Made by a program: the position numbers and the translations under genes | Assembly: GCA_964593905.1 (NCBI GenBank) | Contig: CAZQLE010000002.1 | Coordinates: 3,387 to 67,386, forward strand | Length of the DNA: 64,000 bases | Direction of reading: 5' to 3' | Origin: an uncultured Anaerolineaceae bacterium | GTDB lineage: Bacteria; Chloroflexota; Anaerolineae; Anaerolineales; Anaerolineaceae | In this document: in pieces, positions 11,420 to 40,814 of the stretch | How the letters are laid out: each line of letters starts with the position of its first letter | Position numbering within the stretch: position 1 is the stretch's first letter | Notes under the pieces: generated by a model | Seen by the model: the letters and a program-made list of their open reading frames with translations, nothing else | Told to the model about the DNA's origin: nothing | The model's database searches: none

Positions 11420-13120
11420 TCACCAATTGATCAGGTCATCCATATCTTTGTCGGGTACATCGAAAATTGCCCCGGTGGGGGGCAGCGCCTCTTCGGTCAT
11501 CCATTCGGGCAGCCGATCATGGGCGGGGGTAAACCCGGCCTGGCGGTTAAACGCTCGTTCCAGCTTGATGGTTTCTTTGCCAAGGTCAGCCAGAATGTTT
11601 CGTTCAACGCCCCAGTCATAGCGGGCATTGATCAAATCTCTCAGGGTTGAGGGTGCGGCGGCAAACCCGAACCCGGCAAAAATGCAGGCCCCTAATGTGT
11701 CGTACCCTGCCATGTTGATCTGGGCATTGCGTGATAGGTTTACCTGACCCTCCGGGTTGAGGTGATCGACCTTGGCGCGAATGGTGAGGCCGCTGGTGTG
11801 ATCGGCGCCTTGCGCGCTGGTGGCATAGGTCACCCCGGTGCCCTTGATTGCTCGCGGGTCGTATGCTGAAATGGCCTGATTTTTAACCACTGGCACCCGG
11901 CGCACCCCTAAAACTTTGCCGGTGATTCCGGCCCCACAGCCCAACAGACGACCGAGCGGGGTGCCGCGATAGATTTCATCCATCAGCTCCATCGCCCGCA
12001 TTCCATCGCCAAAGGCCAACAATCCGGCTTGAGCGGCGACGCCCATTGCCGCCCCCAGGTCGATGGTGTCGAGCCCCAGGTCATTTGCGTACCAGTTCAG
12101 CTTTGCGATGGTATCCAGGTTGTCGATGCCAAGATTCGATCCCATCAATCCGATGGTTTCATATTCCAGCGGCGAAACGGTCGAATTTCCATCCTGATCG
12201 CCAAAGTGATTGGAACAACGAATGGTGCAGCCTGCCATGCAGGCGTGGGTTGGATTGCTGGGTCTGGGGCGGTCTAATAGCGTTTGGCGCAGGGTCTCTC
12301 CGGTGATCGACTCAATTTCTTCAAATTGCCCATCGGAAAAACCCCGGGTTGGTAGCGCACCGAGACCATTGCACAGCGCCGCAATGCCGGCTGTGCCGAA
12401 GTCGCGATAGACCGCAGTCTGGGGCTGGGCCATCAGGGCCTGGGTAAATTCCTTTTGTGCGGTCTTGAATGCTTCAATATTCCGGATGGGCGGTTTTTCG
12501 CCCTGACTGCCATCCCAGATGATGGCTTTGATCTTTTTTGAGCCCATTACGGCCCCCAGGCCGCCGCGCGCATTGATGCGCGATGGGATGCCGTCTTTGT
12601 CCAGGTTCTGAATGCCGGCGGACAAGAGCTGCATTTCTCCGCCCAACCCGATTAGGGAAATGGCTACTTTGCTGCCGAAGCGGTCGATAAGGTGTTTTGC
12701 GGTTTCATAGACGCCTTTGCCGGTGAGATTGCCGGCTGGTTCAAAGGAGACCCCGCTGTGGGATACGATCATCAGTTGAAAGGCTGCTTCCGGGGGCTCA
12801 TCTTCGATGATCAAGGTTTTGATGCCCAGGTTTGTAATTTGCAAACCGGTGGAACCACCGGCGTTGCTTTCCTTAATTCCACCAGTCAGCGGGCTTTTTC
12901 CGCCAACCGAGATGCGGTCACAGCTCGACAGCATGTGACCGACCAGTAAACCCGGGGCAAAGATGAGTTTGTTATGTCGGCCAAGGGGATCGCAGGCGGC
13001 AGGTACTTCATCCAGCAAGATGCGTGCAATTAACCCCCTGCCCCCCAGCCGATCCCAGGTTTCAGGAACTGCTTCACAGTTGAAGGTTTTCGTACGGACA
13101 TTGACTCGCCAGACCTGCAT
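11420..13120 (-). CDS. aor: Aldehyde:ferredoxin oxidoreductase family (tungstopterin enzyme)
   Basis: N-terminal AOR_N-like RVNVRTKTF...RLGGRGLIARIL and an AOR C-terminal domain. ATG at 13120 is preceded by GGGAGGTGG; the track GTG start lies inside this RBS. Confidence 0.85.
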   Translation of the reverse strand: MQVWRVNVRTKTFNCEAVPETWDRLGGRGLIARILLDEVPAACDPLGRHNKLIFAPGLLVGHMLSSCDRISVGGKSPLTGGIKESNAGGSTGLQITNLGIKTLIIEDEPPEAAFQLMIVSHSGVSFEPAGNLTGKGVYETAKHLIDRFGSKVAISLIGLGGEMQLLSAGIQNLDKDGIPSRINARGGLGAVMGSKKIKAIIWDGSQGEKPPIRNIEAFKTAQKEFTQALMAQPQTAVYRDFGTAGIAALCNGLGALPTRGFSDGQFEEIESITGETLRQTLLDRPRPSNPTHACMAGCTIRCSNHFGDQDGNSTVSPLEYETIGLMGSNLGIDNLDTIAKLNWYANDLGLDTIDLGAAMGVAAQAGLLAFGDGMRAMELMDEIYRGTPLGRLLGCGAGITGKVLGVRRVPVVKNQAISAYDPRAIKGTGVTYATSAQGADHTSGLTIRAKVDHLNPEGQVNLSRNAQINMAGYDTLGACIFAGFGFAAAPSTLRDLINARYDWGVERNILADLGKETIKLERAFNRQAGFTPAHDRLPEWMTEEALPPTGAIFDVPDKDMDDLINW

Positions 13121-13142
13121 TGAAACCACCTCCCTGTGTAAA

Positions 13143-18334: not shown

Positions 18335-19804
18335 TTATTCTGCCAGCTGCTCGGGAATCCAACAGCAGAGCACCAGCTCGCGGGCTGCCTTAACCTCATC
18401 CATACGCCCGACAGGGGTATGATGGGGCGCCTGGGTGAGCAGTTCGGGCTGGGTGTGGGCCTCTTCAGCAATTTTGATCAGCGTATCGCCAAACGCATCC
18501 AGAGTCTGTTTGCTTTCTGTTTCGGTTGGCTCGATCATTAAGGCTTCGTGCACAATCAGCGGGAAGTAGTTTGTGGGTGGGTGGTAGTTATAATCCATCA
18601 GACGTTTAGAGACATCCAATGCGCGTACACCCGGTGCATCTTCCCACGCGCCTTCAATGACAAACTCGTGCATACAGATTCGGTCATAGGGAAGTTTGTA
18701 GTGTTTGCGAATTTTGGAGAGCAGATAATTTGCATTGAGAACGGCATTTTCTCCAATTGCGCGCAGCCCGTCAGGTCCGTACATGCTGATGTAGGTGAAA
18801 GCGCGCACCATCATGCCAAATTGACCCCAGTAGGATTTTACCCGTCCGATGGTTTTTTCTGGCATTACAAAACCATACAATGGAGGCAGTTCGTCGGAAC
18901 CTTCTTCGACCACGGCCACAATTGGACCCGGCAGAAAATCTGCCAGATGCGGCGCAACGCCGACCGGGCCGGAACCGGGACCGCCGCCCCCGTGAGGGGT
19001 GGAGAAGGTCTTATGCAGGTTGAAGTGCATCACATCGATGCCCAGATCACCGGGCCGTACGATGCCAAGCAGCGCATTCAGGTTGGCCCCATCGCCATAC
19101 ACCAGGCCACCGGCTTTGTGGACAATATCGACCACTTCGAGAATGTTCTCTTCAAACAGGCCGAGCGTGTTGGGGTTGGTGAGCATTAAACCGGCGACGT
19201 TCTGGTCGCAAACTTCGCGCAGCACTTTAAGATCAACGTTCCCGCGGGAGTCTGTCGGAACGGGGACAACTTCCAGGCCACTCATGGCAGATGTGGCCGG
19301 GTTGGTGCCGTGGGCCGAGTCGGGGATTAACATCTTCGTGCGTTTGGCATCGCCCCGTGACTGATGGTAGGCCGCAATGATCTTCACCCCGGTGAATTCG
19401 CCCTGGGCGCCGGCAGCAGGCTGCAAGCTTACGGCCGCAAACCCGCTGATTTCTTTTAGCCATTCCTGAAGGTCAAACATCAGATAAAGATTGCCCTGAA
19501 CGGTTTCTTCAGGCTGCAGCGGGTGGGTGAAAGCAAACCCTGGCAGACGGGCAACTTCTTCATTGATTTTGGGGTTGTACTTCATGGTGCAGGAACCAAG
19601 AGGATAGTATCCGCCGTCAATCGAATAATTTAACTTGGAGAGATTGGTGAAATGGCGGACTACATCCAGTTCGGATAGTTCAGGCAAATGCAGGTCCTGA
19701 CGCACCAGCCCTGCGGGGAGGTCTGCTGCGGGGACATCTGGATCGGGAAAACGCACACCCTGGCGGCCTACTGAAGACAACTCATAAATTGTAGGTTCAC
19801 TCAT
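18335..19804 (-). CDS. gcvPB: Glycine dehydrogenase (decarboxylating) subunit 2
   Basis: Start [10 protein letters not shown] overlaps the gcvPA stop (ATGAGTGA). PLP-Lys region [16 protein letters not shown]. Confidence 0.95.
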
Positions 19805-21149
19805 GCGACACCTCCTGTAAAGCTTCGCAAAGGGCGTCAATTTCTTCCCGACTGTTCATTTCAGTTACAGCCACGAGCATATGATTGTTAAGAGACGCGT
19901 ATTCGCGAGAAAGATCGAAGCCGCCCAGAATATTGCGATCCAACAGTTGGTCGTTGATATCACTCACCGGCAACGGGCACTTTACAACAAATTCATGGAA
20001 GAAGGGCGTTGAGAAATCAACCGAATAGCCTGGAATGGCATTGATTTTTTGAGCGGCGTAATGGGCTTTGTGATAACAAAGCTCGGCCACTTTGCGCAGC
20101 CCAGATTTTCCAAGCAGGCTGAGATAAATGGTGGCAGCCAAAGCCATCAAGCCCTGGTTGGTGCAGATGTTGGAAGTGGCTTTTTCGCGGCGGATGTGCT
20201 GCTCGCGGGCGGTCAGGGTGAGCACATAGCCCCGGCGTCCATCATGATCCATGGTTTCGCCAACCAGGCGGCCGGCCACTTTGCGCACATATTCGTTGCG
20301 GGTGGTGAAGATGCCCAGGTAGGGTCCGCCAAATCCGACCGGGATACCCAGCGGCTGGCCTTCACCAACAACGACATCTGCGCCGAATTTTCCTGGCGGG
20401 GTCAGCAACCCCAGCGCGGTCGGGTTGACGGCGACGGTCAGCATTGCGCCGGCAGCATGGACTGCTTCTGCCAGTTTGGTCAGATCATAAACACGGCCAA
20501 AGAAATCGGGGTACTGAACCACGACCATGGCGGTATCGGAATCGATCATGGGGATCAACTGGTCGGGCGTCAGGAAGGGGTCAAGCGAGGATTCGCCGCC
20601 CTGAACGGTAATGTTCTCATAGCCGCACAAATAGGTGCACAGGACATCACGATACTGAGGATTTACAGACGGAGAAACCAGGAATTTTTTGCGTTTTCCG
20701 CGATACTGGTGATATGCCAGAATGCCAGCTTCTGCTGTGGCGGTGGCGCCATCGTAATGTGAAGCGTTGCTAACATCCATCCCCGTCAGGTTGGCGATCA
20801 GGGTCTGATATTCAAAAACTGCCTGAAGCGTGCCCTGTGAGACCTCGGGTTGGTAGGGGGTGTAGGCGGTATAGAATTCGCCCCGCCGGAGCAGCATGTC
20901 GACTGCGCTGGGGATATAGTGGTTGTAAGCGCCAGCGCCCAAAAAACTGGTCATCTCTCGAACCGTTTCATTGGCTGAGGCGATATCCTGCATCTGGGCC
21001 GAGGCTTCCATCTCGGTTAACGCCGGTGGAAGGTTTAATTTGGGGAAACGATGCTGGGCTGGAACGGCCAGGAAAAGATCTTCCAGGCTCGCTACGCCGA
21101 TGGCGCGCAGCATCTCCTCCTTTTCAGCTTCGGTATGGGGAATATACAT
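19797..21149 (-). CDS. gcvPA: Glycine dehydrogenase (decarboxylating) subunit 1
   Basis: [15 protein letters not shown]-terminus typical of GcvPA. Its ATG overlaps the gcvH stop (TAATG). Confidence 0.95.
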
Positions 21150-21541
21150 TAGTGACCTCGTTCGGAGCAATATTTCTCATAGGCCGGTGCATCCATTAAT
21201 TTGGTCAGATCGGCCGGATCCGACATTTCGATTTTCACCATCCATGCTTTGCCATAGGGATCGGTGTTAACGGTCTCGGAGGCCTGCGCCAGATCTTCGT
21301 TGATGGCAGTGATCACGCCGTTAACCGGGGCAATCACATCGGCTGCCGCTTTGACCGATTCCAGGGTGGCGATGACATCACTTTTTTTCACAGCATCGCC
21401 CACACTGACGGTGATTTCGACAAAAACGATGTCGGAAAGCTGTTCCTGGGCATGGTCACTGATACCGATGGTCGCAACATTGCCTTCAACCTTAACCCAT
21501 TCATCTGTATTGGCATATTTCAATTCCGGTAGAATATTCAT
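21149..21541 (-). CDS. gcvH: Glycine cleavage system H protein
   Basis: Lipoyl-lysine motif LESVKAAADV. Start MNILPELKY is preceded by GAGGAG. Confidence 0.95.
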   Translation of the reverse strand: MNILPELKYANTDEWVKVEGNVATIGISDHAQEQLSDIVFVEITVSVGDAVKKSDVIATLESVKAAADVIAPVNGVITAINEDLAQASETVNTDPYGKAWMVKIEMSDPADLTKLMDAPAYEKYCSERGH

Positions 21542-21585
21542 GGTTTGTCGTCTCCTCAAGGTGTTATGTGGTTTGAAACAACTTA

Positions 21586-21622
21586 CAGAAAACACAAGGC
21601 GCACACCTAGACGGTGCGCGCC
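21586..21622 (-). terminator. Riboswitch expression-platform terminator
   Basis: Minus-strand GGCGCGCACC-GUCUA-GGUGUGCGCC (10 bp, 1 G-U) followed by UUGUGUUUUCUG, directly 3' of aptamer 2 and 45 nt before the gcvH ATG. Confidence 0.55.
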
Positions 21623-21624
21623 CC

Positions 21625-21803
21625 TGTCGATAACCTGAGAGATTCACTGTGTTTCACAGTTTGCCCCTTCGGTGCCGTTGGACTTTCCAGGAGGTTTATG
21701 ACCGGCAGGGTCCTTTTTACCTGAGAGATTCACCAGAGATGCGAGAGTTTCTGGTTTGCCCCTTCGGTGCCACAGAAAAGTTTACTGTGGTCTCTTCCCT
21801 GCC
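21625..21803 (-). promoter_or_regulatory. Tandem glycine riboswitch (two aptamers)
   Basis: Two copies of the conserved cores GGCACCGAAGGGGCAA (plus-strand complement at 21661-21676 and 21756-21771) and GUGAAUCUCUCAGG (21634-21647 and 21720-21733). Aptamer 1 P1 is GGCAGGG/CCCUGCC (21797-21803 with 21704-21710). Located upstream of gcvH. Confidence 0.85.
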
Positions 21804-21812
21804 TTCTTATTC

Positions 21813-21841
21813 ATTCTACGGGCAGCTTATGTAAATGTCAA
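21813..21841 (-). promoter_or_regulatory. Sigma70-type promoter driving the glycine riboswitch and gcv operon
   Basis: Minus strand TTGACA (21841-21836), 17 nt, TAGAAT (21818-21813), about 10 nt upstream of aptamer 1. Confidence 0.6.
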
Positions 21842-21885: not shown

Positions 21886-21925
21886 ATAAAAGACCCTGTG
21901 TTTTGGAACAGGCTCTTTTATTTTT
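21886..21925 (-). terminator. Terminator after the extended rhodanese ORF
   Basis: AGAGCCUGU-8 nt-ACAGGGUCU (9 bp, 1 mismatch) followed by UUUAUGG on the minus strand. Begins 18 nt after the TAA at 21934. Confidence 0.5.
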
Positions 21926-21933
21926 CTTGAGTT

Positions 21934-22413
21934 TTAATCTCCCGGTTCGGTGGGGTAACCGGCCTGCTGCCAGGCTGCAAACCCTCCCAGAATTGGGTTA
22001 ACACGGGTAAAGTCATTATTGAGAAGCGTTAGCGCCGCACGGGCGCTTGATTCTTCGGCCGGTCAAGTGCAATAGGTGATGATCCATTGTTTTGGATCCA
22101 GTTCATTGATCCGATTTTCCAATTCTCCCAGGGGAATATTGATTGCACCGGGGATGTGGTTTACTGCAAATGCATCGCTGCTGCGCACATCCAGAATGAC
22201 GGCTGTTTTCTCGGTGAAGGTCTTATAGGCGTCGTCAAGCGAAATTCTTTCAATCTGGGCAACATCCGTAATTTCTGTTTTTTGATCCGGGTTTGCCTGG
22301 TTTACAAACAATAAAATTGCCACAACCATCAAGATGACGCCCGCTGCGATAATTAAAAATGGGCGCAGAGATCTTGTGGGTGTTTTGCTTGCACTGCTCT
22401 TCTTTCTTGCCAT
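21934..22413 (-). CDS. Membrane-anchored single-domain rhodanese with an in-frame UGA (22063-22065); candidate selenocysteine protein, otherwise a pseudogene
   Basis: MARKKSS start after AAGGAGG and an N-terminal TM helix. The rhodanese fold reads ...VILDVRSSDAFAVNHIPGAINIPL...WIITYCT-UGA-PAEESSARAALTLLNNDFTRVNPILGGFAAWQQAGYPTEPGD. The fold only completes if the UGA is read through. Confidence 0.6.
22021..22056 (-). promoter_or_regulatory. SECIS-like stem-loop downstream of the in-frame UGA
   Basis: RNA reads UGA CCGGCC GAAG AAUCA AGCGCC-CGUGC-GGCGCU AACG CUUC. 6-bp GC-rich upper stem, GU in the apical loop about 23-25 nt after the UGA, 4-bp lower stem. Confidence 0.4.
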
Positions 22414-22641
22414 GCTGCATCCTCCTTTGGGCGATATTTGAGCCTCGATACGCATATCGCAGCCAGTTTTGTTGTCAATAACCTGTATTGCAGGTTTTTT
22501 ACCCGGTTGCGTGTTACGTATAAATTTTATTATAAATATCCAAATAAATCCACTGATTTAATAAATTCCTGCCTAACTTGCTGTTTAAGCAAAGAAAGGT
22601 GTCTCTCGGCTGTTTTGTTGAAAAAAACGTGATTCTGCGGG

Positions 22642-23940
22642 TTATTGCGTAACGGGTTGTTGCCCTGGCCGGTCAAGCAAAAATAAAGAGGCACCCAGCA
22701 GCCGCAATGATCCGCTTACCAGTAAGGCGCCGGGCAGGCCAATTGTTTCGGCCAACAGGGATGCCAACAGCGGCGCTGCGATTGCCGCGCAATATTCGAG
22801 ACTCTGGGCAACCGAGACAAAGGTGGCGCTGTATTCTGGTGGGATTGTTTTTAATAATTCATCAAAGAAGACCAGATTAATGCCGGCCTGGAAGATGCCG
22901 GCAATGCCGGCATAGACCACGATCAGGGCCGGGGTCTGGGTGAAAGCGGTTAAGATCGGGTAGGAAGCCAGGCCGAAAGTGGTCAACAGGAGCACGAACC
23001 TTGACCCTCTTCGGCGTGATTGCCGGGTCCAGAAAAAATAACCGATGATCAATATGGCCGTCTGGGCGGTATTAATGGCGGCGATCCAGCCATCGGAGGC
23101 GTTAATCTGGCGGACAAAATATAACGGGAACAACGGCAAACCGAGATTTGCCCCGGTGAGGTAGACAAACCGTTTGAATACAAAGGATACAAACGGGCGG
23201 TTTGCGGTGATCTGTTTGTAGTAGGAGTGGATTTTCTCTTTCAGATTGGGGCCGGGAAGTGGGGCATCCACTTGAATGTCGGCGATTCGAATCCGGCTGG
23301 AGAAGGTGTAGCTGATGATCGATCCGATGGAAGTGGTTAGAAAGACGGTCTGAAAGTTTAGCGGAAACTTGATGCTGACCAGCACCTGACCGATGGCAAG
23401 GGCAACCAGTGAGGAGGTTAACCCCAACAATGACCAGCGCCGGGTCATTAATTCATATCTTCCGGCAGGCCCTGCAACGGCATTCATGACCACTGAAAAC
23501 GAAATTGCCAGAACTGTCTGTGGCAGGGTTGCCACGGCCCAGATACATAAGATTGCAATTACGGCGGCCTGGGTGTCTTTGAAAATAAAGGGCACCAGAC
23601 CGGTTAACCCATAGCTGCCGATGACCAGCAGGCGGGAGCTGCTAAACCATCTGACTATATTTTTTTGGCGCTGGAGAAAACGCCCGATCAGGATTGCAAA
23701 AAATAAACCGGTAACCCCGGGCATGGTGGTCAGTAAACCAACTTCCAGGCTGCTGGCCCCAAGCCGGGTGAGGAAAACGGAGAGCATCTGGGCGGCCGCA
23801 TTTCCCAGACCAACACCAACGGCGTCAATCTGAACGTTAACAAAATTCTCTTCACTGATATCGGGGGACTGCGGTGTTCGAAACCATTTAATTAAATTCA
23901 AAAGGCCCCCTCTACGTGATCGGGTTAATTTGAATATCAA
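22642..23940 (-). CDS. MFS transporter
   Basis: About 12 hydrophobic helices and an MFS-like loop GRFLQRQKN. The TTG track start overlaps the upstream stop by 29 nt; an alternative TTG at 23901 is possible. Confidence 0.75.
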   Translation of the reverse strand: MIFKLTRSRRGGLLNLIKWFRTPQSPDISEENFVNVQIDAVGVGLGNAAAQMLSVFLTRLGASSLEVGLLTTMPGVTGLFFAILIGRFLQRQKNIVRWFSSSRLLVIGSYGLTGLVPFIFKDTQAAVIAILCIWAVATLPQTVLAISFSVVMNAVAGPAGRYELMTRRWSLLGLTSSLVALAIGQVLVSIKFPLNFQTVFLTTSIGSIISYTFSSRIRIADIQVDAPLPGPNLKEKIHSYYKQITANRPFVSFVFKRFVYLTGANLGLPLFPLYFVRQINASDGWIAAINTAQTAILIIGYFFWTRQSRRRGSRFVLLLTTFGLASYPILTAFTQTPALIVVYAGIAGIFQAGINLVFFDELLKTIPPEYSATFVSVAQSLEYCAAIAAPLLASLLAETIGLPGALLVSGSLRLLGASLFLLDRPGQQPVTQ

Positions 23941-26173
23941 ACTCGCCGGCTGAAAGCGTCAAGGGTGCGCCCAGCAGAATGTCGTACCTTTGCCGCCAGA
24001 GCAATTGCTCGCGGATGAAGTGCAGCCAGTAAATTTCACCGGCCGGTGAGTGCATTTGTTCAAGACGGCGGTCAATTTCATCGATGGACGGCCTGTCAGG
24101 GTGATCTGTGGGGCTTAGGGCCCAGGCCAGGGTCTGGGTGGAATATTGATAAATATTGCCCGCTGCCGAAACCGCCGTGATCTGGCGCAGGCTGGAATGC
24201 GCCCGGAGCGCGACAATCCGTTTGAGGTCGCTTTCGCCTCCGAGGGTTAATATCTTTTGTCCATTGGACACGCCCCAGATATGAACTGCCCCACGTGCAC
24301 CGGCGCTGAGAATGTAGCGTTCATCAGAGGTAAGGCAGATTTCGCCAAATTTTTCGAGATCATTGGAAATCTGAATCCGGTTGAGTTCTTTGCCGCTGAA
24401 GATATTCCAGATGCAGATGTTGTGATCTGTGCCATACGAGGCGGCCAGCTCTCCGGTGGAGGTGCTCAGCGAAGTTATGGCGCCCGAATGTCCTTTCAGG
24501 GTGCGCAGCGTCCCTCTGGCATCTGCATTCCAGATATGGATTTCACCCTGACCATCGCCGATCAACACATCTCCGCGGCGTGTAGCTGCCAGGGCGTAAA
24601 TTTCACTGCCCGACTGATAGATCGGTTCCTGCCCGCCGGTGGGAAAGCGCCAGCGATTGACAACTCCGTCAAATCCGGCGCTGAAGAGGGTGCGTTCATC
24701 CTGGCTTAGCACGATTGCACGCACCAGATTGCTGTGGCCGGAGAGCGTTTTGATCAGCTTTCCCTCGGGCAGCAGATAGATGCGGATGGATTGGTCGGGG
24801 TTGGCGGCTGCCAGATAAGCGCCATCCTGGGTCAGCAGCAGCACGTTTTGCTGGGGTGTGGGAGGATAGAAAATTGATTTTTCCCAGGTGTTGTCGCTGT
24901 GCGTGGCAAACAGGATGCGGTTGTCAGCGGTTCCGAGCGCCAGGCTTTGCCCCGAAGGCGTGAAGGTGGCTGAAATCACTTCGCCATCCAGCCAGTGAGA
25001 CTGATCGGGTCTCAGTGAAGCCAGCGCGGACAGGGTGCATTTGTGCGCCAGATCGGTTAAGCGCAGGAGCAGTTCTTTTTCTTCAGATGACTGTGGCTGC
25101 CAGGCGGCTTTTTTTAACAGACGAACGCCTTCCAACGCCCACCAGGGCGGCGCGGTTTGGACGAGCACCCACAGCGATGCGTAATCTGCTTTTTTGAAAA
25201 GCGCCTGAAAGGCTGCTGCCCAATCGGCATCCTGCAGGTCTGAAATGGAGCGGGTTTTTGAGATGCCGGGTGCATTTTGCAGCCAGTCAATCTGACCGGA
25301 ATAACGGCTTTGAGCCAGAATTTTCTTTTTGAGCACCGAGCTGGCGCGTTCGTATCCGCTGCGGATTAGACGGCGGTCAAAATCGAGGGTTTCATAGGGG
25401 GCCCACTGCCCGGATATGAAGTAAAACAGCGCCCGGTCGGTCGGGTCGGCGGGGGCCCAACCCTGTTGCAGCGCCAGTTGGCAGGCAGGTTCGGCATCCC
25501 AGCGCAAATAAAGCTGACAGACTGCATCCTGGGCGAGAGGGTTGGCGGGGCCGGCAATCTGAGCCAGGGTTTGCACCGTTAGAGTGCGTTCGGGCCCGGT
25601 CATGGCCGCATACTGGTTGACCAGTTGGTCAAACGCTGCCGGGGTTGGCCCGGAAACGCAGGCTGCCAGCGCAGCCCAATGGTGGAGCCTGGCGCTCGCT
25701 GCCGCCTGAAGGAGGAGGGTGCGGGCATCTTGCTCTGCCCGTAGAAAATAAGCGGTCAGGTGTTGTAAATTGGGGTCGTGCGCCTGCAACGATTGGATCT
25801 GTGCGCTGATTAACAGAAAGGCAGACTGTTGGCCCGCATCGGGGTGGGCGAGGCTGTGTTCGATAATCTCTTGCCGGGCATAGCGGTTTGCAGACGCAAT
25901 GCTCAGCTCAAAGAGTGCATCGATGGCCGGTGCGCTGCCCTGTTTTGCCAGCCGGGCCAGACCGTTGGCGGCGCGCAGGTGAATTGCCTCACACGAGGCG
26001 CGCAGGACGGTTTGTCTCAGAATTTGGATGGCCGCTTCGCCGCCGTCTTCAATTAATAACTGCAACGCCCCAACCTGGGTAAGCAAAAAAATATCTGCTT
26101 GGGATGGGTCTTCCGGCAGAAGTTCTGGTTTTAGAATATCCCGATAGCGGGCAAGCTGCTGTGTTTCGATCAT
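23912..26173 (-). CDS. HEAT-like helical repeat plus C-terminal WD40 beta-propeller protein (paralog A)
   Basis: WD repeats LSGHSNLVRAIVLSQDERTLFSAGFDGVVNRW, LKGHSGAITSLS, HNICIWNI and GAVHIWGV. Central motif ALFYFISGQWAPYETLDFDRRLIRSGYE is shared with 29642-32305. ATG at 26173 forms an ATGA overlap with the radical-SAM stop. Confidence 0.75.
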   Translation of the reverse strand: MIETQQLARYRDILKPELLPEDPSQADIFLLTQVGALQLLIEDGGEAAIQILRQTVLRASCEAIHLRAANGLARLAKQGSAPAIDALFELSIASANRYARQEIIEHSLAHPDAGQQSAFLLISAQIQSLQAHDPNLQHLTAYFLRAEQDARTLLLQAAASARLHHWAALAACVSGPTPAAFDQLVNQYAAMTGPERTLTVQTLAQIAGPANPLAQDAVCQLYLRWDAEPACQLALQQGWAPADPTDRALFYFISGQWAPYETLDFDRRLIRSGYERASSVLKKKILAQSRYSGQIDWLQNAPGISKTRSISDLQDADWAAAFQALFKKADYASLWVLVQTAPPWWALEGVRLLKKAAWQPQSSEEKELLLRLTDLAHKCTLSALASLRPDQSHWLDGEVISATFTPSGQSLALGTADNRILFATHSDNTWEKSIFYPPTPQQNVLLLTQDGAYLAAANPDQSIRIYLLPEGKLIKTLSGHSNLVRAIVLSQDERTLFSAGFDGVVNRWRFPTGGQEPIYQSGSEIYALAATRRGDVLIGDGQGEIHIWNADARGTLRTLKGHSGAITSLSTSTGELAASYGTDHNICIWNIFSGKELNRIQISNDLEKFGEICLTSDERYILSAGARGAVHIWGVSNGQKILTLGGESDLKRIVALRAHSSLRQITAVSAAGNIYQYSTQTLAWALSPTDHPDRPSIDEIDRRLEQMHSPAGEIYWLHFIREQLLWRQRYDILLGAPLTLSAGEFDIQINPIT

Positions 26174-26748
26174 TCGTCCTGCCAACGCAAAGGGGTCGTG
26201 CCGCTGAAAAGCAGTTCACCGGCGGCAGAAATCATTACCTCGGCCTCGGGCAAGTTTTGGAGATCGGCGGCAGAATAGCGGTTGGTCATAAAATGCACGG
26301 TCTGGTTCTTTGAACTGAGGTATCCGTGGCTTGCTGGCGCCTGCTGCCTGTAACGGCCAGCAAACAACAGGTCAATCTGGTTCAAAATTGCCGGGCCCAG
26401 TTTTTGGCGGTTTATTTCTTTAAAATTGTACCCTGAAAACACGACGACGCTCAGCGTCGAACGTTTGCGGAGCAGCGCTAAAAACGCCAGCAGACTTTCG
26501 GGCTGCTGCAACGGCTCGCCCCCGGTAAGGGTAATGCCCTCAATTTCGGCTGCGCCCATAAGACATTGTTCCACCAATTGTTCAACCGCGATCAGGTTTC
26601 CACCTGTGGCGGGGTGGGTGTGAGGATTGAAACACCCCGGGCAGCCCAGCGTGCAGCCCTGCACCCAGATGACCGCGCGGCGTCCCGGGCCATTGGCGCG
26701 GCTTAACGGCGCGTAATGATGTACGCGCAACAGGGCCGGGGCGGTCAT
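26170..26748 (-). CDS. Small radical-SAM protein of the NrdG / glycyl-radical-activase type (192 aa)
   Basis: NGPGRRAVIWVQGCTLGCPGCFNP (CX3CX2C directly after an NGPG box) and TLTGGEPL. Confidence 0.8.
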   Translation of the reverse strand: MTAPALLRVHHYAPLSRANGPGRRAVIWVQGCTLGCPGCFNPHTHPATGGNLIAVEQLVEQCLMGAAEIEGITLTGGEPLQQPESLLAFLALLRKRSTLSVVVFSGYNFKEINRQKLGPAILNQIDLLFAGRYRQQAPASHGYLSSKNQTVHFMTNRYSAADLQNLPEAEVMISAAGELLFSGTTPLRWQDE

Positions 26749-26960
26749 GATCCGGTTTTTCGTTCAATCCGGTTGCGCAAATCCAGGGGCAGTTCTTGAT
26801 CGTACAGCTCGGGGGTCATTTCCTGTTCAATCAATTCTCCACCCAGCGCCATCGAAAGGCTTTCAGTCAGGGTTAGACACTGCTCTCCCTTGACGCCGCG
26901 CACATGAATTTGGACTTTGCCGTGTTCGTCGATAATGACTTCCACTTCTTCAATTTCCAT
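26745..26960 (-). CDS. DUF2997-like small protein (71 aa)
   Basis: MEIEEVEVIIDEHGKVQIHVRGVKGEQCLTLTESLSMALGG matches my recollection of DUF2997. AGGTG RBS and an ATGA overlap with the radical-SAM start. The track start at 27077 would overlap DUF1257. Confidence 0.6.
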   Translation of the reverse strand: MEIEEVEVIIDEHGKVQIHVRGVKGEQCLTLTESLSMALGGELIEQEMTPELYDQELPLDLRNRIERKTGS

Positions 26961-26970
26961 TACCACACCT

Positions 26971-27345
26971 CTATACGATCCGGCGCAATACCAGATGAAT
27001 CTGGTTTTGTTCTTTTGTCTCTTCGGCCAGGGTAAAGCCCTGTTCCTGGAGTTTTTCGAGAGCCGCGTGATAGGCATAGCGCTGCAACAGGGCGGTGGTC
27101 AGTTGTTCACGATCTTTTTTTCGCACGCCCCACCAATCGGCGACCATCTCAAACGCCCCGTTGTTAAATTTCAGGCCGACATCATAACTAAACGGGATGT
27201 GAATTTTCAGTTGAACGGTATCAGCTTCTTGCATACCGCGCAGGTGAAATTCACCCTCTTCGACCTGATAACCCAGGTCTTTCAGGGCGGTGAGCACAAA
27301 CTTTTTTTCAACCATACGGGTTCGTAAACGCGATATGTGCGACAT
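26971..27345 (-). CDS. DUF1257 (Ycf35-like) protein
   Basis: MSHISRLRTRMVEKKFVLTALKDLGY...YDVGLKF...FEMVADWW...LLQRYAYHAALEKLQEQGF is colinear with the Ycf35/DUF1257 pattern (from memory). Confidence 0.7.
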   Translation of the reverse strand: MSHISRLRTRMVEKKFVLTALKDLGYQVEEGEFHLRGMQEADTVQLKIHIPFSYDVGLKFNNGAFEMVADWWGVRKKDREQLTTALLQRYAYHAALEKLQEQGFTLAEETKEQNQIHLVLRRIV

Positions 27346-27357
27346 CTTTTCCTCTAA

Positions 27358-28947
27358 TCAGGTCAAACGAACTACAGGAAATTGATTATAAACCTGTTTG
27401 CCGGTAATCACATCACGGGCGGTGATGGTCAGGCGCTTGTTGTGATCGATAAAGAATTCCACATCAAAACGGGCCTCACCGCGCGAAGCCGGAGGGTTGG
27501 CCTGTAAAAAGGTAGGAGAATGCTCGTTCATCCAGAATAAAGTGCGCTGTTCATGGTCATCAGCCGATATGGGAACAATGCGGGCCGCTCCGCCCGGATC
27601 GAATATCAGCTCGACCCCTTCCCGGCGGGCGGTTTTCGGGTCGCCCATCTCAAAAATTGCCAGGCCAAGTTGTTTTTGACCGTCAAACGCGGCTTTGACC
27701 GAAAGCCGGGCGACAGAATTTTCTGTCGGGTAGGGTGTACCGCGCTGCACAAGAGGGTGGTAGTCATATTTGCCACTCTCGCTGTTGATGTAGCGAATGG
27801 CGTAATCATGCTGGATGTGATCAAAGAAATCGACCCCGGCAGCAAATGCAGCCGCGCCGCGGGCGATGGCATCAAAAGGATGCTGATGAAAAACCCGTTC
27901 TTTGCCAAACAGGGTGCGCATTGTTTTTTGGACGGCCGGGATCAGGCTGCTGCCGCCAACCATCAACACGGCCGAAATGGAGTCTTCGTCGTAACCGCGT
28001 TCGCGCGCCATATTGACCGCGCTGCGGATGACGCTGTGCACCTGGGTTAGAAGGTCATGGGCTTCGAGGATCTCTTCAAATCGTGCGCGGGTGAATTCGG
28101 CCATCAGAATTTCACCCGTATCAGGGTTCATCAGGCTGAACTCTGACTGGTCTTTAAATGAAAGTTCCTCTTTAATCCGTTCACATTCCACCAGAATGGC
28201 ATTGCTAAGCCGTCGTACGGTTTCTTCACCTTCTTCGCGGTGATTGCTGGCCAGAACATCTTCATACAACCATTGATCAATAGCCGATCCGCCTATATCT
28301 CGTCCGGCTTTTCCCAACACCCGGCAGCGGCGGCCATTTTTGGCAGCCGCATCTTCTTCCATTCGTACCACAGCAGCGTGCATGGTGCCGCCGCCAAAAT
28401 CGAACACCAGATAAACACTGCCCGGTTGAATATGCGCGCCATATCCCAGCGCAGCAGCAGACGGCTCATCGATCAACCGATAACGGGGCAGACCTGCGTT
28501 TTCGGCAACGGAGGCGAGCCAGTTTTCATAATGCTCGTAAGCCTCAACCGGAACGCTGAACGCAATTTCTTCATCTTTAAGTTCAAGTTCCTGCGCCAGA
28601 ATGATCAAGACGGTGGATAGAAAATTTTGCCCGGCCAGATAGGGTGTGATTTCCCGGTCATCCACCCGGATTTTTACCGGGCTGCGGTTGCCGATGTACC
28701 GTTTCATCCAGCGAAAGGTGCGGGGTGATTGATAAAGGCCGCGCTGGATCACCTGATTGCCGATCCATTGGCGTTGATCGGCCGTGTAATGGATCAGTGA
28801 AGGAATGACCGAAATGCGGCCGGTATCCTGACCGAGCAAACGGCCATATTCCGGCAGGTGATGAACTTCACCCTGCTGTTGATGCTCATCCCAACGTGCA
28901 ATGACCGTATTGGAAGTGCCAAAATCAATTGCAATGCGACCGCTCAA
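27358..28947 (-). CDS. Non-canonical Hsp70/DnaK-family ATPase (529 aa)
   Basis: Actin-fold NBD motifs IAIDFGTSNT, LIDEPSAAALGYG, VFDFGGGTMH and MVGGSSLIPAV. Short divergent C-terminal domain with no EEVD tail. Confidence 0.85.
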   Translation of the reverse strand: MSGRIAIDFGTSNTVIARWDEHQQQGEVHHLPEYGRLLGQDTGRISVIPSLIHYTADQRQWIGNQVIQRGLYQSPRTFRWMKRYIGNRSPVKIRVDDREITPYLAGQNFLSTVLIILAQELELKDEEIAFSVPVEAYEHYENWLASVAENAGLPRYRLIDEPSAAALGYGAHIQPGSVYLVFDFGGGTMHAAVVRMEEDAAAKNGRRCRVLGKAGRDIGGSAIDQWLYEDVLASNHREEGEETVRRLSNAILVECERIKEELSFKDQSEFSLMNPDTGEILMAEFTRARFEEILEAHDLLTQVHSVIRSAVNMARERGYDEDSISAVLMVGGSSLIPAVQKTMRTLFGKERVFHQHPFDAIARGAAAFAAGVDFFDHIQHDYAIRYINSESGKYDYHPLVQRGTPYPTENSVARLSVKAAFDGQKQLGLAIFEMGDPKTARREGVELIFDPGGAARIVPISADDHEQRTLFWMNEHSPTFLQANPPASRGEARFDVEFFIDHNKRLTITARDVITGKQVYNQFPVVRLT

Positions 28948-29438
28948 AATGGAACCTCTATCATGGCGTCAACGCCGATTTTTCGAATAATCTTGTCGCC
29001 CAAACTCACACCGCAAACCTTGATTATTACCGGGTCATCGGGCGCAATGGACTGATTGCTCCCGAGCAGAAGGTGTTGATCGGGATCGTATGCCGTGGGT
29101 TGGCCGATTTCGCCGGTGAAGGCAACCCCTTTTTTTGACAGGGTTTTTTCAAGCTGTGAAAAGACGCGCAGAACATCGTTGACGCCCACTTTGCTGTTTT
29201 CGGCGGCTGCCAGGCGCGCTTGCGTTTTCCACTGAATCAGCATGGGTGCAAGTTCGGCTATGAGCTGCTCAAAAATTTGTATGTCTGCATCCTGAGAAAA
29301 TAACAGATGCTGTTCTTTTTGTATGCGCAGCTCTTTTTCAAGGTCGGATAGACGCTGATTTTTCTCAAACAACTCGGATTCCAGCGCCTGAATTTTTGCC
29401 TGTGAATCTTGATTAGGGTCTGCGAATTTCGGGTTCAT
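28944..29438 (-). CDS. GrpE-like nucleotide exchange factor
   Basis: N-terminal coiled coil (KIQALESELFEKNQRLSDLEKELRIQKE) and a C-terminal beta domain with AYDPDQHLLL resembling the GrpE FDPxxHxA motif. ATGA overlap with the Hsp70 start. Confidence 0.55.
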   Translation of the reverse strand: MNPKFADPNQDSQAKIQALESELFEKNQRLSDLEKELRIQKEQHLLFSQDADIQIFEQLIAELAPMLIQWKTQARLAAAENSKVGVNDVLRVFSQLEKTLSKKGVAFTGEIGQPTAYDPDQHLLLGSNQSIAPDDPVIIKVCGVSLGDKIIRKIGVDAMIEVPF

Positions 29439-29641
29439 ATTTATCCAACCTGTTCTCTGGCGCCATAAGGCAGGTCTGTTTTGCAGTCCGTCTGGGGCGC
29501 TTTATATTCTCCCGATTTTACCGCGAAAACCCGGTCCATTGAGGATCGGAGCCAGTAACCGGCCTGTTTTAATTGCCATGTTCAATGGCGGGGCTGCCGG
29601 CCATGCTGCGGAAGATTAAATCATTTCTGGTGCTGTTTTTA

Positions 29642-32305
29642 TTAAAGAAGAATATCGTACGCCCCCGGCTTTACATGGGTTAGAACATCAATTTGAACCT
29701 CAAAGCGGTAGTGGTATTGCAGGCAGGCTTGAAGTAACCGCATCCACTTGAGCGTTTGTGAAGCGATGTTATCTGCTGACTGCCACTGCTCCAATAAGGT
29801 GATTAACCCGGCCGGTTGAGCCGAAATGGGGCGATTCCAGTTGTTTGAAAAATCCTGAATCCGCAGATCCCACAGCGAAATGCCGTTTTCGCGCGACCCA
29901 AGGGCAAGGAAGGCGCCGTCGGGTGAGGCGTGAACCGATGTAATATTTTGCCACGGAGATTTAATGGCAGCCAGCAGCTCTAATGATTCGGTAAACAGAT
30001 TTAGATCACCATTTAACCAGGCCACTGCCACCCCTGAACGAGTGGGCAGTTGAATTAACCCCGAGCATTTGGCATCATTTTTAACCAGCGAACGGATTTG
30101 CATGGCTTCACGCCCGGTTTTTTGGGAAAAAATTATGATCTGCCCGTTGGCCAACCCCACCCAGAGCTGTCCGGTTGAATCGGTACCGCACTGCTGGGCG
30201 ATGCTGCGTTTTGTTCCGGGTGTTTTCAACGGGTAAGAGACCAGCCGCCCGCCGGTTTTAAAATCTTCCAGACGAACCGAGTGGAGCATTTCATCAAGCA
30301 GATACAGGAATTTCTCGTCGGGTGAGTTGCAAATGGTGCGAAATGTGCGCGAGAGATTAATTTCGCTGACTTCTGCGGGGTCGAATACGTCCAGTTGGCA
30401 GACACGCATATCGGCGCCGCTGGTGATCAGGGTTCGATCTCCCATTACCAGCAGTGCGGTAACCGACCCCAGATGCTGGTTTAGTTTGCGGGTCTCTTTA
30501 CCATTCCATAACCACACCGAACAGGGTTCTGTGCGTTTTGCGGCGCGCTCTCCCCAGATAATTTCACCCGAAGGGAGACTTTCAACCCGATAGGCTGAAT
30601 GTGCCAGGTTGTCCATCCGGGCGGCAATGACCGCCTCCTGGTAATTCCAACGTACAATTGAGCGGCTGCCCGAGGCGATGGTGAGCAACGGCTCAACCGG
30701 CGAGAAGCTCAAATCATTAATCCGTCCGCTTACCCTGATTTGTGATTGCATTGCCAGCGCAGCAAAAGCCGGTTTTTCAAATTGACCGGCAAAGGAAGCG
30801 TGGATCTGTTTTAGTTCGTTATAAAACACGATATCTTGCTCACCGGGCAACCACTCTGAACGGAAAATTTCTTCCAGCGCCCGGGCAGCGCAAGTAAGTG
30901 GCAAATCGAATAATAATTGCCAAAGCTGGTCCCAGCTTTGATGGTTGATGTGGATATCGATCAGCAGATCTGCTTCATCGCAGCCCATTTCAGGGCGGGC
31001 AGATGTGCTTTTGGCAGAAGATAAAATCTCCAAATCTTCCGGCCGGCCGGCGGACTGAATTTTGCGCGAAATTCGCTTGCGCAGTTCGGGCGCAGCGGCC
31101 GTATACAGCGCCCGCAAAACGCGGCGGTCAAAATCCAGCGCATCATAAGCTGCATATTGCCCGGTGAGATAATAAAACAACGCGCGATCTTCAATTTTGA
31201 TCGGTGCATAACCTGCTTCGGTGGCGATTTTTAACGCGCGGGCGTGGTTTTGGTTGAGCGCCAACCGGCAAAATTCATCCACTGCCGCCCGATCTTGCAA
31301 ACCAGACAGAGCCTGTTGAACATTGGTCTGGATAATGGGGTCTGGCTCATCGATCCACTGGAGGAGGTGGGCAATTGCTTCGGGAATTGTGGTCTCAGAA
31401 ATTAAAGATGCGCCGACTTTGGCACGGGTGAGCAGCCGCAGCGACAGCGGGGCTGAGGCCGTATATTTTGCCCGTACCAGAATATCTTCCAGGTCTGATG
31501 AGCGGGTATCTGCCCACTGCTGGCAAAAAACATCGACTGAGGGTTGAGTGGGCAATGAAGCGCAGAGAAAGCCCGCATTGTGCTGCAAGGCGGGGCTGAC
31601 ATCGTGCATTGCATCGATCAAAATCGGTACAGCTTCTGCGATAACCGGTGTTAACCATTCGGGATGATTGGTCAGCAATGCCGTATATACCACAGCGCGC
31701 AATGGTTCGGTGGGATGATATTGTGTTGCAGTAATTAATGCTGCCAGTGTCGCATCGCGGGTGACCATCCATAATTTGCAAAGGGCGTTGATTGCGTCTT
31801 GCCGTTTGAGGTTGGAAAGCGCATTCCGGGCCCGTTCGGCGACCAGAGGGTCCTTATCTTCACGTTTGATTACCAGAGCGGGAATGAGATCTTCATTAAT
31901 CAAACGTTCCGTATTCTTTTTGTTTAACACCAGCAGGCTTAATGCACGCATCTCTGGCGGGTGTCTGGCGGGTTGATCCAATTCGAGCAGCAGTTCACGG
32001 ATCACCGCGGGGCGATGGTTGCTGGCGTAAACATCCCATAGGATGTCTATCGCAATATTGGAACGAAGGCTGATGAACAGATCGTGCACCGCGCTGTGAA
32101 TTTCAGGGTCATCATACAGCATTAAAAATTTGGCGCATAAGCGCAGCGCCGATTGGTCGCCAGCCCTGGCAAGCTGCACCAACTGGTTCACCGCGGTGCG
32201 CTGCGCCCAACCGCTGACCACGGGGAATTGGATATTGGCGAGGCGTTCCCAGCGCTGTGCTGCGGCGGAGGGCAGAGCGGTGCGTTTTGAGCGATAAGAA
32301 GGCAT
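29642..32305 (-). CDS. HEAT-like repeat plus degenerate WD40/beta-propeller protein (paralog B)
   Basis: Shares ALFYYLTGQYAAYDALDFDRRVLRALY with paralog A. HEAT-like N-terminal half. C-terminal half has repeated beta-strand units (GISLWDL, SIVRWNY, SVWLWNG). Start is 2 nt after the AAA+ stop. Confidence 0.7.
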   Translation of the reverse strand: MPSYRSKRTALPSAAAQRWERLANIQFPVVSGWAQRTAVNQLVQLARAGDQSALRLCAKFLMLYDDPEIHSAVHDLFISLRSNIAIDILWDVYASNHRPAVIRELLLELDQPARHPPEMRALSLLVLNKKNTERLINEDLIPALVIKREDKDPLVAERARNALSNLKRQDAINALCKLWMVTRDATLAALITATQYHPTEPLRAVVYTALLTNHPEWLTPVIAEAVPILIDAMHDVSPALQHNAGFLCASLPTQPSVDVFCQQWADTRSSDLEDILVRAKYTASAPLSLRLLTRAKVGASLISETTIPEAIAHLLQWIDEPDPIIQTNVQQALSGLQDRAAVDEFCRLALNQNHARALKIATEAGYAPIKIEDRALFYYLTGQYAAYDALDFDRRVLRALYTAAAPELRKRISRKIQSAGRPEDLEILSSAKSTSARPEMGCDEADLLIDIHINHQSWDQLWQLLFDLPLTCAARALEEIFRSEWLPGEQDIVFYNELKQIHASFAGQFEKPAFAALAMQSQIRVSGRINDLSFSPVEPLLTIASGSRSIVRWNYQEAVIAARMDNLAHSAYRVESLPSGEIIWGERAAKRTEPCSVWLWNGKETRKLNQHLGSVTALLVMGDRTLITSGADMRVCQLDVFDPAEVSEINLSRTFRTICNSPDEKFLYLLDEMLHSVRLEDFKTGGRLVSYPLKTPGTKRSIAQQCGTDSTGQLWVGLANGQIIIFSQKTGREAMQIRSLVKNDAKCSGLIQLPTRSGVAVAWLNGDLNLFTESLELLAAIKSPWQNITSVHASPDGAFLALGSRENGISLWDLRIQDFSNNWNRPISAQPAGLITLLEQWQSADNIASQTLKWMRLLQACLQYHYRFEVQIDVLTHVKPGAYDILL

Positions 32306-40668: not shown

Positions 40669-40814
40669 CCGATTTGGGGAGTTTCGGCATATTCAATCGG
40701 TGATAAAACACAAATGGCAGCCGGGAGGCGGCAGGGTATAATGGGGATGCTTTTCAACCCAGTATGAAGTTCATGGCAAAAACCGAAAACCAGATTGTCC
40801 ACAGGAGAGTATGT

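Follow-up and report, generated by a model that had tools for sequence, protein, structure and literature searches.

Structure of the locus

The window, by which we mean the whole 64-kb stretch of DNA analyzed, carries on its minus strand a short rhodanese gene interrupted by an in-frame UGA (Table 1). The reading frame opens with MARKK... at an ATG, in agreement with the 116-aa database entry P0001, which is the UGA-truncated form of the window protein in public annotation. It proceeds to ...WIITYCT, meets the TGA, and stays open in frame for 42 further codons (PAEESSARAALTLLNNDFTRVNPILGGFAAWQQAGYPTEPGD) until the TAA at 21936-21934. Read through the UGA, the 159-aa product consists of an N-terminal membrane anchor and one complete rhodanese domain that extends across the UGA, with the motif T-Y-C-T-U at residues 113-117 and the predicted selenocysteine (Sec) two residues past the active-site Cys. 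The original prediction, made from the sequence alone, had described the stop after ITYCT and the 42 codons beyond it, and re-reading of the sequence agrees; it had also placed the only terminator-like hairpin after the second stop, and indeed the site at 21912-21895 is the sole one of its kind near the gene on the minus strand, following the TAA and not the UGA.

Table 1. Features of the rhodanese locus and of other parts of the 64-kb window
Feature	Position	Strand	Basis or remark
Shine-Dalgarno-like AAGGAGG	22421..22427	-	7 nt 5′ of ATG 22413; read directly from sequence
Predicted full selenoprotein ORF	21934..22413	-	159 codons + TAA; UGA (Sec) is codon 117
N-terminal hydrophobic anchor, F19-V37	22303..22359	-	sequence; follows basic MARKKSSASKTPTRSLRP
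Rhodanese domain, residues 59-150	21964..22239	-	Pfam PF00581, E 3e-15, profile positions 2-101 of 102
Cys115 (TGC), at the end of strand IITY; the canonical catalytic Cys of rhodaneses	22069..22071	-	alignment with 3tp9
UGA, predicted Sec codon 117, C-T-U motif	22063..22065	-	stop column in homologs and conserved downstream frame
Outer helix GAAG/CUUC enclosing the core	22024..22056	-	22056-22053 with 22027-22024; in MFE fold
Putative bSECIS core hairpin AGCGCC-CGUGC-GGCGCU	22031..22047	-	starts 15 nt past UGA; conserved helix nt 20-34
Intrinsic-terminator-like hairpin CCTGTTCCAAAACACAGG + T-run	21886..21912	-	22 nt past TAA
MFS transporter	22642..23940		upstream of the rhodanese gene
WD40/HEAT to MFS cluster	23912..32305	-	order kept in loci L123-L129
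HSP70-like gene	27358..28947	-	ends in TGA
Promoter-like site TTGACA-17-TAGAAT	21813..21841	-	near-consensus; precedes glycine aptamer
Glycine riboswitch aptamer	21698..21809	-	RF00504, 60.7 bits
ORF directly downstream of the aptamer	21149..21604
Glycine-cleavage P-protein-like ORF	19797..21170
Glycine-cleavage P-protein-like ORF	18335..19840		the only one of these three ORFs scanned with Pfam
Second rhodanese gene, 345 aa	59103..60140	-	two rhodanese domains, Pfam E 7e-35
Aldehyde:ferredoxin oxidoreductase gene	11420..13129	-	AFOR_N/AFOR_C
Aldehyde:ferredoxin oxidoreductase gene	40764..42983	+	AFOR_N/AFOR_C
ORF of 766 aa	37080..39380	-	no Pfam match at E <= 1e-5

Of the 33 large ORFs in the window, 12 end in TGA; this codon is therefore not globally reassigned and the genetic code is standard, as had been proposed. 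A scan across the window for other TGA-split ORFs accompanied by hairpins gave nothing convincing. Beyond the terminal TGA of the HSP70-like gene, the frame remains open for 128 codons, which, because of synteny with loci L123-L129, probably represent the next gene in frame (DUF1257 in those loci; MSHISRLRT... in the window) and not a recoding candidate.

The genes around the rhodanese reveal no constant partner: neighbor clustering over the 120 loci listed (described below) gave no common partner gene, the largest neighbor group comprising 16 loci. Both the upstream MFS transporter and the nearby WD40/HSP70/DUF1257/DUF2997/radical-SAM cluster are syntenic in close relatives only. The latter cluster, in which genes for WD40/HEAT, GrpE-like, HSP70/MreB-like, DUF1257 and DUF2997 proteins are followed by a small radical-SAM protein (Fer4_12), a 757-aa WD40-like protein (sharing 30% identity with proteins of relatives that Pfam annotates as WD40) and then MFS, looks like an uncharacterised conserved module. 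Some clades carry, immediately downstream, another rhodanese, of Cys type and preceded by a hydrophobic leader (six loci); in others the upstream neighbor is heavy-metal P-type ATPase-like by sequence (seven loci), and a further upstream neighbor, in six loci, is a hydrophobic protein. L078, L027 and L095 are among the loci with such neighbors. On the other side of the window gene, past the terminator, a single glycine riboswitch aptamer was detected directly upstream of an ORF, with glycine-cleavage P-protein-like ORFs also located 3′ of it. Elsewhere, the window contains a second rhodanese gene with no in-frame UGA and two aldehyde:ferredoxin oxidoreductase genes.

We also inspected the window and the related loci for Sec-decoding genes. 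Pfam scans covered 30 of the 33 large window ORFs and matched 29 of these 30, with no selA, selB or selD among them, and ARAGORN found no tRNA in the 64-kb window and, over the 132 related loci retrieved (762 kb), no tRNA-Sec. A gene at 4347-5375 on the 136-kb metagenome contig L004, located 4 kb from the selenoprotein gene (a rhodanese matching P0046/P0053 from Thermanaerothrix), was considered as a SelD candidate on the basis of a single tblastn match, 27% identical to E. coli SelD, with E. coli SelD and SelB as queries; it was rejected as an AIR-synthase-family member which, as judged by eye, is devoid of the SelD-like N-terminal Cys/Sec motif. Chloroflexi as a group are on record in the literature as containing Sec decoders and tRNA-Sec.

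The UGA column and the downstream frame in homologs

We examined the residue opposite the UGA in the best 120 homologs, roughly 40-60% identical, retrieved by protein search from a collection of 5.8 billion proteins, in which the closest named relatives come from Chloroflexota/Thermanaerothrix MAGs. As many as 103 of these entries stop exactly at ...YC[TSA]; the others have W (nine entries), Cys (two entries, P0079 with YCTCPAEESS and P0032 with YCACSAEQSS) or Leu (one entry) at this column, or belong to other architectures (five entries). The full-length database versions showing W at the Sec position are P0002-P0010, and in the single W entry checked at the DNA level, P0009 (equivalent to L130, 136-552), the codon is TGA, so that its W looks like an artefact of calling genes under code 4 on a short contig.

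Genuine Cys codons occupy the column only rarely: TGC is found in P0079, P0032, L001, L002 and L132, and a scan of genome contigs with [WC] back-translated at the Sec column yielded two Cys-form loci only, L001 and L002. The expectation, stated in the original prediction, that homologs would carry C-x-C-P at this position is borne out by P0079, L001 and L002, all with YCTCPAEESS, while P0032 has YCACSAEQSS. Thus, Cys characterizes the rare non-UGA forms, with one Leu exception, P0011 (equivalent to L131, 3001-3483; GCA_964546205.1, CAZJJE010000026.1), where TTA replaces the UGA (YCSLPSEESSARVA). Recent loss of Sec, an inactive protein or a misassembly may lie behind this Leu variant.

At the DNA level, the pattern IITYCT-TGA-CC was found in at least 120 metagenome loci, and all 120 listed belong to the rhodanese family. 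Since the pattern fixes just two nucleotides past the TGA, conservation further downstream is an independent observation. In the 120 loci listed, the frame is open for about 40 codons past the TGA wherever the contig allows, and the peptide that it encodes is conserved as PxExSSARAAxxLLxNGFxxVxPILGGFxAWxxAGYPVEP, followed by a stop. No downstream decay of the kind that would have spoken against the original prediction was seen in these relatives, and the conserved downstream frame excludes a pseudogene or a sequencing error.

A conserved hairpin downstream of the UGA

The hairpin reported earlier to follow the UGA by 15 nt, together with its outer GAAG/CUUC stem, is present and constitutes the MFE structure (-13.9 kcal/mol for nt 1-45), with the loop at 22041-22037 and G26 U27, numbered from the U of UGA, at 22040-22039. 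Its geometry had been said to fit bacterial SECIS (bSECIS) elements, and indeed it agrees at every point with the published bSECIS model (PMC13188914), which specifies a loop of 3-9 nt (here 5 nt, CGUGC), an upper stem of 4-16 bp (here 5-6 bp), a G in the first two loop positions (here at position 2, followed by U), a UGA-to-loop distance of 16-37 nt (here 21 nt) and an MFE of -7.5 kcal/mol or lower, the last being reached in all 111 sequences of the alignment considered below. An Rfam scan of the hairpin matched no family, and neither the gathering threshold nor a limit of E <= 10 brought up a hit of SECIS type. Taken alone, the window hairpin does not differ significantly from shuffled sequences (z = -0.7 to -1.2), and its significance therefore comes only from comparative data.

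For the comparison we used a gapless alignment (A2) of 111 distinct 63-nt segments beginning at the UGA. RNAalifold independently predicted from these 111 sequences one helix of 5 bp, between nt 20-24 and nt 30-34, the cells of which are paired in 97.3% of cases, versus 19-58% after a shift of the 3′ partner by 1-3 columns. Two of its pairs join third codon positions on both sides, namely 21-33 (CG in 97 sequences, UA in 10, UG in 2, unpaired in 2) and 24-30 (CG in 103, UA in 6, GC in 1, unpaired in 1), and at these synonymous sites we counted 17 double-sided changes. In the loop, all 111 sequences have G26, and 105 of them have U27, although the latter occupies a third codon position. The outer helix varies in register across the family, columns 17-19 pairing with 35-37 in just 19-48% of sequences.

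Codon choice within the hairpin departs from that in the remainder of the same genes. The Ser codon at nt 19-21 is AGY in 100% of cases, against 39% of Ser codons elsewhere; the Ala codon at nt 22-24 has C in the third position in 93%, against 38% GCC for Ala elsewhere; the codons at nt 28-30 and 31-33, mostly for Ala, have G in the third position in 94% and 89%, respectively, against 26% GCG for Ala elsewhere; and the loop codon at nt 25-27 ends in U in 95%, while CGT constitutes 15% of Arg codons elsewhere. By these measures, the hairpin is conserved beyond what the protein sequence requires, and the earlier reading of it as SECIS-like gains the support of a conserved helix with synonymous-site covariation. 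The hairpin is absent from the three Cys-form loci L001, L002 and L132. The Leu variant L131 retains four of its five pairs.

The arrangement resembles that of the E. coli fdhF bSECIS and of the bSECISearch model in that the stem-loop lies immediately 3′ of the UGA, within the coding region, and the fdhF SECIS and the window hairpin also have in common a GU in the small apical loop. In fdhF, this GU corresponds to G23 U24. The window helix differs from its fdhF counterpart in being short (5-6 bp) and located one codon further downstream, in having no sequence similarity to it and no conserved bulged U, and in being embedded in the conserved S-A-R-A-A codons.

Rhodanese domain, active-site loop and membrane anchor

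With the UGA bridged, the Pfam Rhodanese domain is matched with 57 bits against a gathering threshold of 22.2, and the Cys opens the active-site loop after the central strand. Since the match spans the UGA, the annotated 116-aa product would be left without the last third of the fold. PDB rhodaneses match the window protein by sequence down to E 3e-22, and the counterpart of Cys115 in 3tp9 is the catalytic Cys (yC-RTGGRS); in the HMMER alignment, the loop of the window protein is two residues longer than CRTGGRS of 3tp9.

For a structural view, the Cys-form homolog P0079, which is 34% identical to the window protein, was modeled by AF2 from a 15-sequence alignment. The model, with pLDDT >90 over most of the domain, shows the strand LIITY, the loop C-T-C-P-A-E and then a helix. 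When compared by Foldseek with solved rhodaneses, it aligns over about 100 residues with rmsd 1.5-2.7 A (E 3e-9 to 1e-6), the nearest solved structures being 3nhv, 3gk5, YgaP and CoADR-RHD, all ordinary single-domain rhodaneses. The same single-domain fold is shared by BH2092 (3nhv), TVG0868615 (3gk5), GlpE (1gmx), YgaP (5hbo) and CoADR-RHD (3icr). Together, the model and its solved-structure neighbors identify Cys115 as the canonical catalytic residue, and Sec117 as a predicted second reactive residue of the same loop.

The hydrophobic segment near the N-terminus follows a basic stretch, and, because of the positive-inside rule, it is predicted to act as an N-in signal anchor with the rhodanese domain outside the membrane, probably on its outer face. 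YgaP is anchored by C-terminal helices, whereas the anchor of the window protein is N-terminal. Hydrophobic leaders, resembling anchors, signal peptides or lipobox-type leaders, were found in 78 of the 100 family members that could be assessed; the 22 leaderless members include the xDTRNPQAW branch.

Relationship to known selenoprotein families

The original prediction had stated that Sec-containing rhodaneses were already reported and uncharacterised, and this proved to be the case. The best NCBIfam match of the window protein is NF041203 (rhodanese_LYCAU, 'rhodanese-related (seleno)protein'), over model positions 15-125 of 126, and the Y-C-x-U motif is defined here by the name of this model together with a review table. 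Rhodaneses with the same CxU motif are listed in reviews as a predicted, uncharacterised selenoprotein, 'rhodanese-like form 3 / COG0607 form 2' ('form 3' in PMC13188914), the prediction being credited to Zhang & Gladyshev in 2005.

When U is entered as C, the window protein reaches 72.7 bits against NF041203, below the cutoff of 115, while eight other IITYCT-U loci score 143.9, 110.8, 104.8, 103.6, 92.8, 85, 73.7 and 72 bits, the first of these being L026, a sister locus above the cutoff. The three highest-scoring loci share the hairpin with the window gene. This continuum of scores, with at least one locus past the cutoff, makes the window protein a divergent branch of the NF041203 continuum. 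Like the window protein, NF041203 members have a single rhodanese domain, about 110-125 aa, with Sec two residues past the retained Cys (x-Y-C-x-U). Unlike them, the window protein has TYCTU rather than LYCAU, possesses the N-terminal membrane anchor, falls outside the NCBI equivalog, and has Chloroflexota-type relatives annotated as truncated at the UGA (e.g. P0052 and P0053). Because rhodanese selenoproteins of the CxU form have been in catalogues since 2005 and an NCBI model exists, the window gene is a divergent new member of the known CxU family, and not a new kind.

Other predicted and uncharacterised rhodanese-like selenoproteins, forms 1, 2 and 4 (UxxS / UxxG; Geobacter WP_010941598.1; Sargasso Sea 'rhodanese-related sulfurtransferase', COG2897), have in common with the window protein the rhodanese fold and an in-frame UGA in the active-site region. 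They differ from it in that their motif begins with U, whereas the window protein keeps Cys115 and would have Sec117 as an extra residue at +2. The UxxS and UxxG motifs would place Sec in the position of the catalytic Cys.

The Cys-form homologs (L001 and L002 from Thermoanaerobaculia MAGs, P0079 and P0032) are 34-36% identical to the window protein and share its domain, its N-terminal hydrophobic leader and, apart from the Sec column with TGC for TGA, its loop (C-T-C-P-A-E-E-S-S in the Cys forms). In the next helix they have SSGEA or SSGRA versus SSARAA, and the RNA hairpin is absent.

Proposed decoding of the UGA and alternative readings

In the proposed scheme, translation would not terminate at codon 117; the mRNA hairpin 15 nt downstream, with its G+C stem of 5-6 bp and 5-nt GU loop, would act as a bacterial SECIS and recruit SelB-GTP-Sec-tRNA(Sec) to the ribosome, and selenocysteine would be inserted. 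Translation would then run for 42 more codons, adding the helix-strand-helix that completes the rhodanese fold, and the gene would finish at the TAA followed by the intrinsic terminator. We consider it very probable that the product of the segment 22413-21934 is a single-domain rhodanese selenoprotein of 159 residues, anchored in the membrane by its N-terminus, and that the UGA is read as Sec with the aid of the hairpin. What the sequences establish is the layout of the gene, the retention of the UGA, the downstream frame and the hairpin throughout the family, and the relationship to the known CxU rhodanese selenoproteins. It should be kept in mind that we infer Sec insertion in the source organism, as well as the topology and the chemistry of the product. 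Since Sec lies two residues past a retained catalytic Cys, the loop C115-T-U117-P-A-E likely accommodates a Cys/Sec pair forming a selenenylsulfide or a persulfide/perselenide relay, and not a mere exchange of Cys for Sec.

Decoding and a conserved RNA signal are proven by the comparative data, the identity of the inserted residue is not, so one may ask if the same hairpin could serve to insert another residue, either Cys, by a tRNA(Cys) acting as an opal suppressor, or Cys/Ser mis-charged on tRNA(Sec) under selenium limitation. In PMC5389517, tRNA(Cys) species imitating tRNA(Sec) are described and proposed as opal suppressors in some deltaproteobacteria, i.e. in another lineage than that of the window. 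We regard such a substitution as improbable: the family is on record as one of selenoproteins (NF041203), and the preservation of the costly UGA and hairpin in 112 of the best 120 homologs, with TGC only one mutation away, argues against Cys.

It is still less probable that the UGA is a genuine stop, leaving either a truncated or decaying rhodanese or the 116-aa product of current annotation, with the downstream frame and hairpin as relics. Public annotation does call the 116-aa product (P0001), and Sec genes were not seen in the 64-kb window, but this product would be devoid of the final, C-terminal third of the rhodanese fold, the 42 codons past the UGA are intact in the window and their protein sequence is conserved at 40-60% identity in the approximately 120 loci listed with no frameshifts or decay, and the terminator is placed past the TAA, not past the UGA. 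Least credible of all is a TGA arising from TGC or TGT by sequencing or assembly error, or one read as Trp or Gly under code 4 or 25, as might be suggested by the nine database homologs with W, since the W entry checked proved to be TGA at the DNA level, more than 100 independent assemblies show this TGA as well, and TGA terminates 12 of the 33 window genes.

Implications for the family

Recoding of the UGA as Sec, the reading favored above, leaves the knowledge of recoding as such unchanged; its consequences concern the rhodanese family. With 103 of the best 120 entries truncated at the Sec codon and nine showing Trp, the IITYC-T-U branch is missed in selenoproteome counts, and the hairpin signature AGY-GCC-CGU-GCG-GCG in the S-A-R-A-A codons provides a simple mark for re-annotation. 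The branch may be dominant in Chloroflexota-type MAGs, while lying outside the NCBI model and being truncated in essentially all public annotations. As candidate chemistry, it offers a Cys-x-Sec pair in a rhodanese active-site loop, which in most members would reside on an exported or membrane-anchored domain, making the family a tractable target for biochemistry.

More speculatively, the membrane-anchored or exported IITYC-T-U branch could constitute a functionally distinct class, an extracytoplasmic Cys-x-Sec redox enzyme working through a selenenylsulfide or a sulfane-sulfur/selenium relay, as opposed to a conventional cytoplasmic sulfurtransferase. We advance this idea tentatively and hold it to be rather unlikely at present, but if true, it would place the IITYC-T-U branch among the few exported bacterial selenoenzymes, and as one very widespread in soils and sediments.
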